Sequence record: PZ445446.1
Length of the DNA stretch: 64,000 nt
DNA from: a phage
Strand: one strand, 5' to 3'
Below, piece by piece: positions 24,457-62,165 of the stretch. Below the pieces are notes generated by a model. The model was given only the letters and a program-made list of their open reading frames with translations. It ran no database searches and was not told the DNA's origin. Position 1 is the stretch's first letter. Each line of letters starts with the position of its first letter. The position numbers and the translations under genes are program-made.

Positions 24457-24852
24457 TTACTGAAACAGTGCGGATAAATTACCTTCTGGTGGGAACTTAT
24501 CTGCCAAAAACGGTGTTAGCACAGTAGCCTTCTGAAGATCTGGGGTCCACTCGTTGTTCAGAACATCCCAGTAGTACGCAATGTTGCTGTGTGGGTGCCG
24601 CATTACGAACTTTTTCCCTTCGTAGTCATCTGAAACCTCTACAGAAGAAATAACAACAGAATCTTCAAGGGTTTCTTCATAGAAAGATCCACCTTCAAAT
24701 TTCCAACGAGATGCAAGAGCCCCTGCCTTGAACGCTGCAGATAACGGACTGTCGGCAAGAACATACATTTCTTGCACTCTGTCGCTGCGATCTTTGCTTC
24801 TTACGTTGTATACAGTATCTGAGCTATACTCAACACGGTATAGGCTTACCAT
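24457..24852 (-). CDS. hypothetical protein (paralogue of 26659-27057)
   Basis: 131 aa; shares HP(H/D)S...YW...W(T)P motif with ORF 26659-27057. Confidence 0.45.
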   Translation of the reverse strand: MVSLYRVEYSSDTVYNVRSKDRSDRVQEMYVLADSPLSAAFKAGALASRWKFEGGSFYEETLEDSVVISSVEVSDDYEGKKFVMRHPHSNIAYYWDVLNNEWTPDLQKATVLTPFLADKFPPEGNLSALFQ

Positions 24853-25211: not shown

Positions 25212-25452
25212 AAGGGGTCATGAACGAATAAACGGCATCATCATCTGCTTCAGGGAATGCTCCCAAAGACTTCATGTCTGAGCCCTTGACAAATACAAGG
25301 TTTTGATCAAAAGCTTCTTGAGGATCAATCCGATACATATTTCGTAGAATATCGCCTACCTCCTCATCAAGAGGTGAGTATGCTGTGCACGTTTTTCCGA
25401 TCAAGCTTTGAGAATCAGGGTATCCACCTGAAGTTTTAAAATAAACAATCAT
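25189..25452 (-). CDS. hypothetical protein
   Basis: 87 aa ORF overlapping downstream gene. Confidence 0.4.
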   Translation of the reverse strand: MIVYFKTSGGYPDSQSLIGKTCTAYSPLDEEVGDILRNMYRIDPQEAFDQNLVFVKGSDMKSLGAFPEADDDAVYSFMTPFEAMVVG

Positions 25453-25543
25453 ATAGTATCACCTCTGGTAAGAGATTGGGATTCCTTTCCCACAAATAAT
25501 TACAAACCTTCCTTATCGAGGAAGTATGCTAATCCAAGCAAGA

Positions 25544-25813
25544 TTATTCCTCTACAATCTCATACACATCCGGAGTTACAATCAACTCTTCTCCGTTACC
25601 CGGTGCAACAAACACCACCATGCCTTCAGGTGTGTGCTTTTTAGCCATCTCGATAACATCTTCTCGCAGAGCTGGCTCCATCAGATCAAAACCTTCACCC
25701 AGGGCATCACGAACCACCTTCATATAGTCAACTGGTTGTGCTTCGACAATCATACCTTCAACCAGTCCACAGTTTTTGTCTGCCAGCTCAGTTTTGAATA
25801 ATTTAATTTTCAT
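25544..25813 (-). CDS. hypothetical acidic protein
   Basis: 89 aa ORF beginning MKIKLFK. Confidence 0.45.
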   Translation of the reverse strand: MKIKLFKTELADKNCGLVEGMIVEAQPVDYMKVVRDALGEGFDLMEPALREDVIEMAKKHTPEGMVVFVAPGNGEELIVTPDVYEIVEE

Positions 25814-25950
25814 TTAGAGGCCTCCTCAATTATTTGATATTAATAGCCGTAACCTAACACATTAACTACAACTGCGATTGCAAACATAATTTCAAAGCAT
25901 GCAATCTCTACATTTGGGACTAATTTCTTGATCACACCCATTGTAGCACC

Positions 25951-26268
25951 TCATTCTCTAAAGTCAATCTTTACTTTGCCTTTCCCCTTACCTTTCTTTC
26001 CACCGCATTTAGCCAGTTGACGTGCTGCAACATCTACCATACGGTCAGTTGCCTCGTAAGCATCACTGCCTTTAGCTTTGGCAATAACTTCTTTTCCAGA
26101 ATTGTCAAAAATGAACGCCATAACTTCCTGGTGATCATTTTCAACTTTTACACTCACACGTGCATAGTTGGCAGAGGGATGCAAACGCTCCAGCTTAGAC
26201 ATTTTGTGGGAAATGAAAGACACCATACCTTCAGTGATTTCTACGTTGCCAGTGATTTCAATTTGCAT
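25951..26268 (-). CDS. hpf: ribosome hibernation promoting factor / RaiA (YfiA) family homologue
   Basis: 105 aa; N-terminus MQIEITGNVEITEGM matches the HPF/YfiA start (MQLNITGNNVEITEAL in E. coli HPF); shared KLE, VKVE, G-D-Y-A-D and ARQL positions; lysine-rich tail; aagga SD. Confidence 0.65.
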   Translation of the reverse strand: MQIEITGNVEITEGMVSFISHKMSKLERLHPSANYARVSVKVENDHQEVMAFIFDNSGKEVIAKAKGSDAYEATDRMVDVAARQLAKCGGKKGKGKGKVKIDFRE

Positions 26269-26350
26269 AACGTGTTCCTTTTAAAGAAGAGGGAACCAAA
26301 CCCTCTTTGAAAACAATGATACTAAATCTGAAGCGTTGTGTCAACAGTTT

Positions 26351-26641
26351 TTACAGATTGTTGTCGATAGTTTTTAAAATATCCACAGCAAGATCTGCCA
26401 TTTTTCGAACATACTCTGCAAACTCAACAGGATCCTTGATCAAAGAATTCACAGGGTCGTACCCTAGAGCGTTCAAAATGGCTGCAGCATCTACAACCTT
26501 CTCATCATTTGCGAAGATCTCTCCATCAAACTTGTAGGTCCATTTTGAGTCAATCTTGGCAGGGAATGATTGGTCAACGCTTGTTACACCATCCTTTTTA
26601 AACGCTCCGGTGTTATCAGTGTCTAGAACTAAATCCATCAT
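26351..26641 (-). CDS. hypothetical protein
   Basis: 96 aa ORF. Confidence 0.45.
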   Translation of the reverse strand: MMDLVLDTDNTGAFKKDGVTSVDQSFPAKIDSKWTYKFDGEIFANDEKVVDAAAILNALGYDPVNSLIKDPVEFAEYVRKMADLAVDILKTIDNNL

Positions 26642-26658
26642 GTTAGTACCTCACCGTT

Positions 26659-27057
26659 TCAGTTTAGCTTTTCTTCAACAACCCCATAGCTCGGGACAGA
26701 GTCAAGAGCTTTCTGGTTTAAAAGTGGTGTAGCAGAATCTGCAAACGGTGTCCAAGTTTTTGTTCTGGCGTTCCAGTAATGCTTCACTCTGGAATCTGGA
26801 TGCACTATAACAAAAACTTTTTCACTTGTCAACACATTAATTTCTTCCACACCCCTGCTGATAATTTCTCCGTCATATCCCCCGGTCTGGTATCCTTCGT
26901 ACCAGGTTCTTGCATAGGCATAGCCAGCCTGCCAGCATGCAGCCTCCTCCGAGGTGGAGACTACGTAGAAGTCTTTCTCAAATTCTGGGATACGCCCTTG
27001 CTTTACGCTCCAAGCTCCGCGAATTTTCATTGTAACTTTGAATAGTTTATTTTTCAC
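26659..27057 (-). CDS. hypothetical protein (paralogue of 24457-24852)
   Basis: 132 aa; shared motif with ORF 24457-24852. Confidence 0.45.
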   Translation of the reverse strand: MKNKLFKVTMKIRGAWSVKQGRIPEFEKDFYVVSTSEEAACWQAGYAYARTWYEGYQTGGYDGEIISRGVEEINVLTSEKVFVIVHPDSRVKHYWNARTKTWTPFADSATPLLNQKALDSVPSYGVVEEKLN

Positions 27058-27069
27058 AACGGTTACCCA

Positions 27070-27324
27070 TCACAGTTCTACAATATCTGCATCTGACCCT
27101 GCCCCAAAGGCATAATAGGACTCTTCCCCGAAATAATATTCCGGTGCACCAGCAGCGATCAGGTCTGATCCCAAAATGAATACCACGTTGTGGCCTACAT
27201 AGCTGTGATTTTGCCGCACAGGATCATCCCACGGCAACCCTTCGAAGTATACCGCAGGGACGACCTTTCCTTTCAGGAAGGATTGCCCCAAGTAGACGTT
27301 AGAATCAAGAATTTTAACCTTCAT
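27070..27324 (-). CDS. hypothetical protein (DLIAAGA family)
   Basis: 84 aa beginning MKVKILDS; shares MKVK-LD and DLIAAGA motifs with 27314-27541 and 30955-31188. Confidence 0.45.
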   Translation of the reverse strand: MKVKILDSNVYLGQSFLKGKVVPAVYFEGLPWDDPVRQNHSYVGHNVVFILGSDLIAAGAPEYYFGEESYYAFGAGSDADIVEL

Positions 27325-27541
27325 GATCGTCCTCCACTATCTCTACATCCTCACCTAGGGCAAAGTTGTAGGTCCACTGACTGTCAAAGCATTCCTGAGA
27401 TGCACCAGCGGCAATAAGATCTGCCCCTTTTATTTTTAAAAGGTCAGGGTAATCTTCGTTAGGGACAGCAGTAAACACTTTCCCTACTAAAGGCTCCTGA
27501 CCAATATAGAAGCTTGAATCTAAAACTTTAACTTTCATCAA
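27314..27541 (-). CDS. hypothetical protein (DLIAAGA family)
   Basis: 75 aa paralogue of adjacent gene. Confidence 0.45.
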   Translation of the reverse strand: MMKVKVLDSSFYIGQEPLVGKVFTAVPNEDYPDLLKIKGADLIAAGASQECFDSQWTYNFALGEDVEIVEDDHEG

Positions 27542-30424: not shown

Positions 30425-30958
30425 CTACAAATGGTCGCTGAGGGTGTCAAGAAAATTATCCCGTTCTTTCTCAGAGTTTTCATGTGTGTAGCTGAAAAAC
30501 ATATCGAGAATAACCTTATTGATATATTCCAGCTCCTCTGTGTTCAGATGCTTAGCAGGATCTACAATGACATCCCAAATATCATACAGACCACACTCAT
30601 GATACCCATAACGCCACTCAATTGTCAAGCTGAGCGGCAAATCTTTACCTTCACAAACAACCTTCCATCTACATATGTTGGTATCTGGTCGTACCTGTGC
30701 ACGGTAAACCTGCACAAAATCCAATTTGAATTTGAGGTACTCGTCATACAATTTAAGCACAAAGCTCTCGATTTGTGGAGACACTTTTGCAGCAAACTGT
30801 GCGTATTTGTACTTGCACTGGATGATCTTTCTACGTTTTGCAGTTAAATTTTTTGCCGCCAGTTGTTCTTCAGTGTATCTCCACCTACGATCAACAAACG
30901 CAACAGGGTCTTTGTCCCCATAGAGGTCTTCCCAGTTAATCAGAAGCATACCTGTCAC
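30425..30958 (-). CDS. hypothetical protein
   Basis: 177 aa ORF. Confidence 0.45.
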   Translation of the reverse strand: MTGMLLINWEDLYGDKDPVAFVDRRWRYTEEQLAAKNLTAKRRKIIQCKYKYAQFAAKVSPQIESFVLKLYDEYLKFKLDFVQVYRAQVRPDTNICRWKVVCEGKDLPLSLTIEWRYGYHECGLYDIWDVIVDPAKHLNTEELEYINKVILDMFFSYTHENSEKERDNFLDTLSDHL

Positions 30959-31188
30959 TCCTCCACAACTTCAAGGCCTTTACCGCCTCGCTCTGGCAGA
31001 TTACTTAAAGATAGGTAATACATATAATCAGGAGAGATCCTGCCAGACTCTGCACCTGCAGCTAGTAAATCCTTCCCTTTAACCAGGACAACATTCTCGT
31101 TTGCAGATAGCCGTTTTGCTTCCACAATTTTACCAACACAGTCAACCAAGGAAGGGTACCCTAAATCTGTAAGAAATTTAACTTTCAT
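30955..31188 (-). CDS. hypothetical protein (DLIAAGA family)
   Basis: 77 aa beginning MKVKFLTD with DLLAAGA motif. Confidence 0.45.
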   Translation of the reverse strand: MKVKFLTDLGYPSLVDCVGKIVEAKRLSANENVVLVKGKDLLAAGAESGRISPDYMYYLSLSNLPERGGKGLEVVEE

Positions 31189-61306: not shown

Positions 61307-61381
61307 GCCCTGTTAGCTTAGTGGATAAAGCAGCGGCCTTCTAAGCCGTTGACACTGGTTCGAGTCCAGTACGGGGTGCCA
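61307..61381 (+). tRNA. tRNA-Arg (anticodon UCU)
   Basis: Hand-folded cloverleaf: acceptor gccctgt/acggggt (two G-U), D-arm gctt/aagc, anticodon loop cttctaa, T-loop ttcgagt, encoded CCA. Confidence 0.7.
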
Positions 61382-61385
61382 AATT

Positions 61386-61472
61386 GGGGAGTTATCCCGT
61401 AGAGGTAGCGGTGTAGACTGTAAATCTATTGTCATTGCGACTCGGGTGGTTCGACTCCACCACTCCCCACCA
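61386..61472 (+). tRNA. tRNA-Tyr (anticodon GUA), type II
   Basis: Acceptor ggggagt/actcccc, anticodon loop ctgtaaa, long variable arm, T-arm ggtgg-ttcgact-ccacc, CCA encoded; close to E. coli tRNA-Tyr. Confidence 0.75.
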
Positions 61473-61586
61473 AATTTATATTTTTAGATGCATAAATAAT
61501 ACAGATAATGGCATTGATATTTATCGTCGTTTATACTAGTCACTAACTGCTCGAAAATCAGTGTCATTATCAGTATAATTTATAAA

Positions 61587-61677
61587 GGAGGGTAGGGAGC
61601 AATGGTGCTCAAGCGGTCTTGAAAACCGTCCCGTTGAGGATGACTCGATGATGGTTCGATTCCATTACTCTCCGCCA
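61587..61677 (+). tRNA. tRNA-Ser (anticodon UGA), type II
   Basis: Acceptor ggagggt/actctcc, D-stem gagc/gctc, anticodon stem gcggt/accgt with loop cttgaaa, long variable arm, T-loop ttcgatt, CCA encoded. Confidence 0.7.
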
Positions 61678-61766
61678 CATTGTTGACCTTGTAATTAAGC
61701 GAAAGCCGGAAGCAGAACCGGATTATCAAATGTTACAGTCGTCATCGCCGACTAGCAACATGGTCA

Positions 61767-61863
61767 ACATACTGAGCTAGGTAAGCCCTTTGGCAAGGGC
61801 GAGGATTTTTAATCCTGAAAATAGACGAGGTAGTCGTTGAATACATAGGTGGTTCGATTCCAT
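61767..61863 (+). tRNA. atypical tRNA-like gene (UUU-like anticodon loop, ~30-nt extra region, no encoded CCA)
   Basis: Perfect 7-bp acceptor gctaggt/acctagc, normal D-arm (gccc-tttggcaa-gggc) and T-arm (ggtgg-ttcgatt-ccatc), anticodon-like loop tttttaa; ~30 nt between anticodon and T arms; 3' end is CCT. Confidence 0.4.
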
Positions 61864-61870
61864 CACCTAG

Positions 61871-61946
61871 CACCTTTTTGCTGATGTAGCACAATCGGTA
61901 GTGCAATTGATTTGTAATCAATAGGTTGTAGGTTCAAGTCCTGCCA
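61871..61946 (+). tRNA. tRNA-Thr (anticodon UGU)
   Basis: Acceptor gctgatg/catcagc, D-stem gcac/gtgc, anticodon stem attga/tcaat with loop tttgtaa, T-loop ttcaagt, CCA encoded. Confidence 0.75.
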
Positions 61947-61947
61947 T

Positions 61948-62022
61948 CAGCACCAAGGCCCTGTAGCTGGAAGGTTCAAGCAAGCGACTCATAATCGCCA
62001 GACGGTGGTTCAATTCCACCCA
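61948..62022 (+). tRNA. tRNA-Met (anticodon CAU; initiator/elongator/Ile-lysidine not resolved)
   Basis: Acceptor ggccctg/cagggcc, anticodon loop ctcataa, T-arm ggtgg-ttcaatt-ccacc, CCA encoded. Confidence 0.65.
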
Positions 62023-62033
62023 GGGCCACCAAA

Positions 62034-62110
62034 TAGTAAATACTCCGCGTAGCTCAGCTTGGTAGAGCGCCTGATTTGGGATCAGGAGGTCGAGTGTTCG
62101 AATCACTCCG
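62034..62110 (+). tRNA. tRNA-Pro (anticodon UGG)
   Basis: Acceptor ctccgcg/cgtggag, D-arm gctc-agcttggta-gagc, anticodon stem cctga/tcagg with loop tttggga, T-loop ttcgaat, CCA encoded. Confidence 0.75.
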
Positions 62111-62165
62111 TGGAGACCACTTTCAGTTATACTTTAAACATATATAAACAAAAGGAACCTTTAAA

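Follow-up and report, generated by a model that had tools for sequence, protein, structure and literature searches.

The rV5-like coliphage DNA analysed here (sequence record PZ445446.1; the whole 64,000-nucleotide stretch is referred to below as the window) encodes a short-type protein of the HPF/YfiA (Ribosomal_S30AE) family with a single domain. Its gene is under strong purifying selection, including the part that encodes a Lys/Gly-rich C-terminal tail. Membership of the HPF family is as good as certain, and the ancestry is a gammaproteobacterial-type short HPF, now well diverged at 41% identity to E. coli HPF. The gene itself is already known, having been annotated since the rV5 record and published and assayed in 2019. 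New here are the analysis of selection, which extends to the tail, a copy in a sister lineage, a canonical ribosome-contact set that, judged from alignments, is only partly kept, the non-relatedness of the neighbouring genes, and the gene's own sigma70-type promoter. The features of the locus are collected in Table 1.

Table 1. Features of the phage HPF locus, in positions of the window
Feature	Coordinates	Strand	Basis
Phage HPF homologue CDS, 105 aa plus stop	25951..26268	-	ORF list and translation; PF02482 and TIGR00741 matches
Shine-Dalgarno AAGGA	26276..26280	-	Seen in the sequence itself, 8-12 nt ahead of the ATG
Codons 1-88, folded S30AE/HPF core	26005..26268	-	AlphaFold2 model and Foldseek
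Codons 89-105, Lys/Gly-rich basic tail GGKKGKGKGKVKIDFRE	25954..26004	-	Composition, pLDDT
Sigma70-type promoter, TTGACA-17 nt-TATCAT	26316..26344	-	11/12 consensus positions; directly upstream of the HPF gene

The ORF starts with ATG and has 105 codons, the end coordinate taking in the stop codon; the coding strand is minus, and the plus-strand translation of the same interval is meaningless. An earlier note, made without database searches, had described the product, MQIEITGNVEITEGMVSFISHKMSKLERLHPSANYARVSVKVENDHQEVMAFIFDNSGKEVIAKAKGSDAYEATDRMVDVAARQLAKCGGKKGKGKGKVKIDFRE, as a homologue of bacterial HPF/YfiA along most of its length, and profile searches bore this out with significant matches above threshold. 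Pfam Ribosomal_S30AE (PF02482) was matched with 48.3 bits (gathering score 23.7; E 1.8e-12), residues 3-88 aligning onto profile positions 1-83 of 88, and NCBIfam TIGR00741 (HPF/YfiA family) scored 45.9 bits, above its cut-off of 40.9. The best-scoring NCBIfam model was NF007780, the enterobacterial HPF equivalog (55.8 bits, below its cut-off of 125), while the RaiA/YfiA equivalog NF007654 reached 17.6 bits, below a cut-off of 158. Its PHROG is phrog_12469 ('unknown function'; E 2e-70), with a more distant match to phrog_8990 (S30AE family; E 1.5e-6). No second Pfam domain was found in the 105-aa protein, and the C-terminal dimerisation domain of long HPFs is absent. With phmmer, residues 1-89 aligned onto residues 1-89 of E. 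coli HPF (2rql; E 5.3e-12, 41% identity), and the short similarities that the note had quoted were all present in this alignment (MQIEITG-NVEITEG/MQLNITGNNVEITEA, KLE, (V/L)KVE, G.D.Y.A.D and ARQL). The lysine-rich tail was likewise as described.

Structure prediction and superposition, which the note had proposed as a check, recovered the HPF topology. The AlphaFold2 model, built from 21 sequences, had a mean pLDDT of 82, with values per 10-residue block of about 87-94 over residues 1-80 and 80 for residues 81-90, falling below 50 over residues 91-105, which are predicted to be disordered. The order of DSSP elements in the model was E2-7, H13-29, E33-43, E46-55, E60-67 and H70-92. Foldseek superposed the model on V. 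cholerae HPF (4hei) with an rmsd of 1.0 Å and on E. coli HPF in the hibernating ribosome (6h4n_x) with an rmsd of 1.1 Å (TM 0.82/0.90, 41% identity), TM values for the two ranging over 0.82/0.90-0.93, and all 36 PDB matches at E <= 0.001 were chains of the HPF/YfiA/pY family. Invariant or near-invariant columns of the family were matched at T12, K22, A63, D69, Y71 and D75. The core (residues 1-88) has a pI of 5.9, compared with 6.5 for E. coli HPF, and the 17-residue tail, with seven basic residues, a pI of 10.3, giving 9.0 for the whole protein.

The window is from a Vequintavirus. The 5 kb around the gene were 99.8% identical to Escherichia phage WalterGehring (Bas51, MZ501111), in which the gene is bas51_0154, and 97-99% identical to many other Vequintavirus coliphages. 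Using tblastn, the protein was detected in 118 of 50,697 phage records, all with an alignment over >= 80% of its length and almost all with an identity of at least 95%; these correspond approximately to the whole clade matching this region (120 records). Its annotation varies among public records, including 'sigma 54 modulation factor', 'ribosome hibernation factor', 'hpf' and 'RaiA'. The BASEL phages WalterGehring, AlexBoehm and RudolfGeigy carry identical proteins labelled 'ribosome hibernation factor', and the RefSeq name is 'ribosome-associated translation inhibitor RaiA'. In the rV5 record (DQ832317) the gene is ORF144, 'sigma 54 modulation factor; similar to Klebsiella oxytoca P17161'. 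The gene of the window is the same gene, at the same position and with the same promoter (P144), and its product is 99% identical to the rV5 protein (ABI79209), from which it differs only at residue 104, where G in rV5 is R here, a conservative tail polymorphism.

Several records of this region deserve separate mention. At least seven (MT884008-MT884011 and OR062525/528/530) label the HPF gene 'ATP-dependent protease La type I', which is clearly wrong for a 105-aa S30AE-domain protein. A further 18 records named 'Campylobacter phage' (MG0656xx; C5, C9, C14, C15, A12a, D# etc.) carry an rV5-type region at 97-99% protein identity, unexpected for Campylobacter hosts, which suggests that they are mislabelled or contaminating coliphages. 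Two variants of the gene were also seen: the HPF of phage naswa (L009 301-621) has a one-codon insertion restoring an E. coli-like GNNVEIT, and that of phage JES2013 (L010 301-618) has a GTG start and a replacement (D69N) in the sole column that is invariant in the family alignment.

The rV5 protein and five relatives were presented as phage HPFs by Mizuno et al. (2019, Nat Commun 10:752, PMC6375957). When expressed from pBAD in E. coli, the rV5 HPF could be detected in the crude extract, not in the 70S/100S fractions, and the abundance of 100S particles did not discernibly change (PMC6375957). Cells were harvested at OD600 = 1 (late-exponential) and ribosomes pelleted through 500 mM NH4Cl, and the authors named growth phase, salt stripping and a genuine loss of binding as possible reasons for the negative result (PMC6375957). 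Given that harvest point and that salt concentration, we do not regard the result as decisive. A gut-coliphage study of 2020 repeated the same annotation, and our literature search for later functional work on phage HPF returned nothing beyond these two papers.

Among seven rV5-like copies of the gene, dN/dS was 0.02-0.2 (Nei-Gojobori), and by the same method the copy in the window differed from one of them (L004) by 28 synonymous and 6 non-synonymous changes. In the Lys/Gly tail, L004 showed 5 synonymous changes and 1 non-synonymous change. The phage HPF is thus under strong purifying selection, tail included. Selection could be followed further in a sister lineage of the rV5-like phages, recovered as four metagenome or read-archive sequences (L005-L008, 15.7-126 kb) that are syntenic across the block of small genes in which the HPF gene lies, at 28-84% protein identity. 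The orthologue there (P0004, on contigs of about 125 kb known from metagenome or read-archive assemblies only) has 103 aa, is 64% identical to the HPF of the window and occupies the syntenic position in the same block, and HPF is better conserved between the lineages than most of its neighbours. Its tail is also basic and ends K-W-D-Y, compared with K-I-D-F in the window. Between the two lineages synonymous sites were saturated (pS 0.78), with pN at 0.25. The sister lineage was not found in the collection of 50,697 phage records, where the best matches of P0004 were rV5-type copies at 64%.

These data bear directly on whether the gene does anything for the phage. Host-derived auxiliary genes are often transient and the single functional test gave no phenotype (PMC6375957), as would be expected if a host gene had been picked up by chance and were now decaying without a phage role, or if it were mis-annotated. 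We consider this highly improbable: the dN/dS values and the excess of pS over pN between lineages exclude it, the ORF is intact in all eleven copies translated (seven rV5-like and four of the sister lineage), the 118 matching records align over most of the protein, the dedicated promoter and the Shine-Dalgarno sequence are conserved, and the fold is confidently predicted.

Relatives of the protein are few. Scanning IMG/VR for more copies gave only two loci, and an exhaustive search of 1.84 billion representatives returned only 22 matches at E <= 1e-3. One apparent relative, P0006 (1160 aa, with eight 'HPF-like' stretches), was discarded as a spurious match to a PPC-domain repeat protein. Outside phages, the closest relatives belong to the gammaproteobacterial short-HPF type and are only 31-45% identical; therefore, unless evolution has been fast, the acquisition was not a recent one. 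Nor do the identities support a recent transfer from the host, at 41% for E. coli HPF and 45% for the nearest non-phage representative. HPFs of jumbo phages (Cronobacter phage GAP32, K4F6Q6; Escherichia phage PBECO4, L7TII8), which Mizuno et al. grouped with the rV5 HPF (PMC6375957), likewise consist of a single S30AE domain with the same fold. However, they are only 21-23% identical to the rV5 type and fall into a different PHROG (phrog_8990, as opposed to phrog_12469), which argues for independent acquisition in the jumbo phages.

Ribosome contacts published for E. coli and Enterobacter HPF were mapped onto the phage proteins through the alignment and are given here in E. coli numbering. Kept in the phage HPF are K23, K26, E44, E60, R83, K87 and K91, and Q29 is replaced by R, the commonest residue of the family at this position. 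The helix-2 basic spine (K80, R83, K87, K89 and K91) has been described as strictly conserved in Gram-negative HPFs; three of its five residues (R83, K87 and K91) remain in the rV5-type protein. R83, which contacts m4C1402, is kept in both phage lineages. By contrast, K80, a lysine in 13 of 17 other homologues, is V in the rV5 type and T in the sister lineage, and K89, basic in 14 of the 17, is G and S, respectively; the sister lineage also has S at the K91 position. T53, which contacts m2G966, has become F (rV5-type) or R (sister lineage). Further replacements in the rV5 type are R33 to S, H55 to F, K93 to G and H95 to G, and most of the positions replaced there are also changed in the sister lineage. 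K80, K89, T53, R33, K93 and H95 of E. coli HPF are replaced in both phage lineages, and according to the published contact lists K93 and H95 touch the E-site tRNA and G693 in the 100S state. As far as alignment can tell, the canonical contact set is only partly kept.

The promoter of Table 1 is annotated in rV5 (DQ832317) as 'Sigma70-type promoter; P144', its sequence is conserved in the rV5-like loci, and a TTGACA box also lies upstream of the gene in the sister lineage. The rV5 genome paper describes only host-type sigma70 promoters across the transcription unit of the HPF gene. Unlike E. coli HPF, which is encoded at the host's own hpf locus, the phage gene sits in a phage small-gene block behind a promoter sequence of the constitutive sigma70 type. 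It would probably be transcribed from this promoter by unmodified host RNA polymerase and, judging by promoter type only, probably early in infection. Between the promoter and the Shine-Dalgarno sequence lies a potential hairpin (AGAGGG...CCCTCT, -9.9 kcal/mol); we rejected it as a structured 5'-UTR element, its z-score against shuffled sequences being -0.83, and Rfam gave no match at E <= 1 in 25400-26800.

The small-gene block comprises about 35 minus-strand genes at roughly 20.4-31.9 kb. As the earlier note had stated, broadly correctly, most of their products are acidic (pI 4-5), and the HPF, at pI 9.0, belongs to a small basic minority. Comparable small-gene blocks in other phages hold host-takeover and anti-defence genes. 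The note had also pointed to neighbours sharing an MK(I/V)EITG-like N-terminus with the HPF. Three neighbours do start with MK(I/V)EI(T/F), but the resemblance does not extend to homology: neither Pfam nor an all-against-all BLASTP linked any neighbour to the HPF, and candidates for HPF paralogues, including the gene at 25544-25813, were rejected at BLASTP E >= 0.17 and hhalign probabilities <= 1%. A Pfam scan of 10 genes of the block found no family match.

The gene at 25544-25813 (minus strand), two genes downstream of HPF, encodes an 89-aa acidic protein that is called 'sigma 54 modulation factor' in naam_151, naswa_172 and other records; since it has no Pfam match and no S30AE/HPF similarity, this label is probably an annotation-transfer error. 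Only 10 nt downstream of HPF, a 33-codon ORF on the minus strand (25840-25941), annotated as rV5 ORF145 and also in Bas51, encodes the hydrophobic peptide MGVIKKLVPNVEIACFEIMFAIAVVVNVLGYGY, and a promoter-like site (TTGACT-16-TACAAT, 25967-25940) overlaps the 3' end of HPF. In the sister lineage the intergenic DNA at the ORF145 position measures only 83 nt, and the ORF appears to be absent. The block also contains a paralogous pair on the minus strand (24457-24852 and 26659-27057; about 130 aa, 31% identical, E 5e-9) and a minus-strand trio of acidic paralogues starting MKVK(I/V/F)L (27070-27324, 27314-27541 and 30955-31188; about 75-85 aa, 31-42% identical), neither with a Pfam match. Elsewhere in the window, seven tRNA-like genes (Arg-TCT, Tyr, Ser, Thr, Met, Pro) lie at 61307-62119 on the plus strand. 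One of the seven, at 61776-61874, is an unusually long element of 97-99 nt with a four-base 'anticodon' atcc, which ARAGORN could not assign but which, at 35.5 bits, still exceeds the Rfam tRNA threshold of 29. It may be a tRNA that contains an intron, one that resembles frameshift suppressors, or a degenerate one.

With regard to function, we lean slightly towards the view that the phage HPF acts by occupying the canonical ribosomal site; we hold it no more firmly because the sole experiment was negative, though not decisive, and because the contact set is partly altered. Like HPF and RaiA, the protein would most likely bind vacant host 30S or 70S particles in the head-body channel, covering the A/P-site decoding region. 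Binding could rely on the retained K22, K25 and R28 of helix 1 and R83, K87 and K91 of helix 2, with the disordered Lys/Gly tail touching further rRNA as it follows the mRNA path in the direction of the E site and the platform, and it would probably be weak and reversible. The likely benefit would be that idle host ribosomes are parked and shielded from degradation, or that residual host initiation is damped, while phage mRNA replaces host mRNA. The rationale of protection draws on E. coli, whose hibernation factors block the access of RNases to sites in 16S rRNA (PMC7913689).

The replaced contacts would also fit an HPF fold that has lost stable ribosome binding and acquired a new function, in which the dsRBD-like fold and the basic tail act on something else, for instance on mRNA of the phage or the host, on tRNA, or, as decoy or inhibitor, on a component of the host's defences or RNases. 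The protein was absent from purified ribosomes despite good expression (PMC6375957), and both lineages have lost the T53 contact as well as two of the five basic residues of helix 2 described as strictly conserved. The family is narrow and divergent, as its 22 matches among 1.84 billion representatives and the low identity of its non-phage relatives attest, and the gene resides in a block of small genes without family matches where scanned. Foldseek in addition returned, far down its ranking, echoes of the phage inhibitors T7 Gp1.2 and Acb4, which have similar small alpha/beta folds, but these matches were weak (E 2.5e-3 to 3e-2, TM 0.37-0.5). We nevertheless judge such a change of target unlikely. 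The residues conserved in both lineages (K22, K25, R28, E43, D69, Y71, D75, R83 and K87) are largely family or ribosome-contact positions, as continued use of the ancestral surface predicts, and none of the data here suggest an alternative partner.

If the phage protein does occupy the canonical site, the tail bears on what follows from that occupancy. E. coli short HPF (YhbH; 2rql, 4v8h, 6h4n chain x) is likewise a single S30AE domain of similar length (95 aa, compared with 105 in the phage protein) and the same fold, with a C-terminal end about 10 residues shorter than the Lys/Gly-rich, disordered phage tail. E. coli RaiA (YfiA, protein Y; 1n3g, 4v8i; 113 aa) has the same fold and presumably the same binding pocket, and although only 24% identical to the phage HPF, it shares with it a C-terminal extension past the length of E. 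coli HPF. The tails measure 17 residues beyond C88 in the phage protein, 8 after K87 in E. coli HPF and 26 in RaiA; that of the phage is net basic, whereas that of RaiA ends in an acidic run. Published structures and reviews describe the RaiA extension as reaching the RMF site and interfering with 100S formation.

By analogy with RaiA, the phage HPF could occupy the HPF/RaiA site as a competitor, its basic tail entering the RMF/anti-Shine-Dalgarno region, so that RMF-HPF 100S dimers are prevented or dissolved, for example in slow-growing or stationary hosts, and host ribosomes stay readily re-usable as 70S for phage mRNAs. Mizuno et al. had proposed that a viral HPF might compete with its cellular homologues and thereby prevent dimer formation (PMC6375957), and the intermediate length of the tail and the purifying selection on it point the same way, as does the known reach of the RaiA extension. 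A basic stretch followed by an aromatic/acidic end is common to the tails of this HPF, of its orthologue in the sister lineage and of many longer-tailed homologues, and the replacement of the K93 and H95 contacts fits a changed role at the C-terminal end. However, the core scores far higher on the HPF model than on the RaiA model (55.8 against 17.6 bits), and occupancy of the A/P site would itself block translation, so that a simple 'wake-up' of ribosomes would not result. The small 100S fraction was, moreover, unchanged on expression of the rV5 protein, although in late-exponential cells with few 100S particles (PMC6375957). We regard this competitor role as a doubtful alternative to the parking and shielding of ribosomes by a protein bound at the canonical site.

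The gene, which is the example published in the 2019 survey of virus-encoded ribosomal proteins (PMC6375957), presents a puzzle: purifying selection on it is strong in two lineages and more than 100 isolates, but the sole experiment found no association of its product with ribosomes. As a tentative and rather improbable solution, the rV5-type protein would be a repurposed hibernation factor, in which a reduced-contact HPF core is combined with a selected, RaiA-style basic tail and serves to undo 100S particles or to shield the ribosome. Perhaps made early in infection, such a factor could undo or prevent the host's RMF/HPF 100S hibernation, or it could shield the decoding centre and the 3' end of 16S rRNA from host RNases or defence nucleases. 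If true, this would explain the un-HPF-like behaviour in the 2019 assay and would amount to a viral takeover of the ribosome hibernation pathway. The rV5-like phages are common phages of E. coli with members in the BASEL collection, and they count as candidates for phage therapy and for the biocontrol of O157; at stake is whether phages employ hibernation factors to silence the ribosomes of their hosts, to protect them or to reawaken them.
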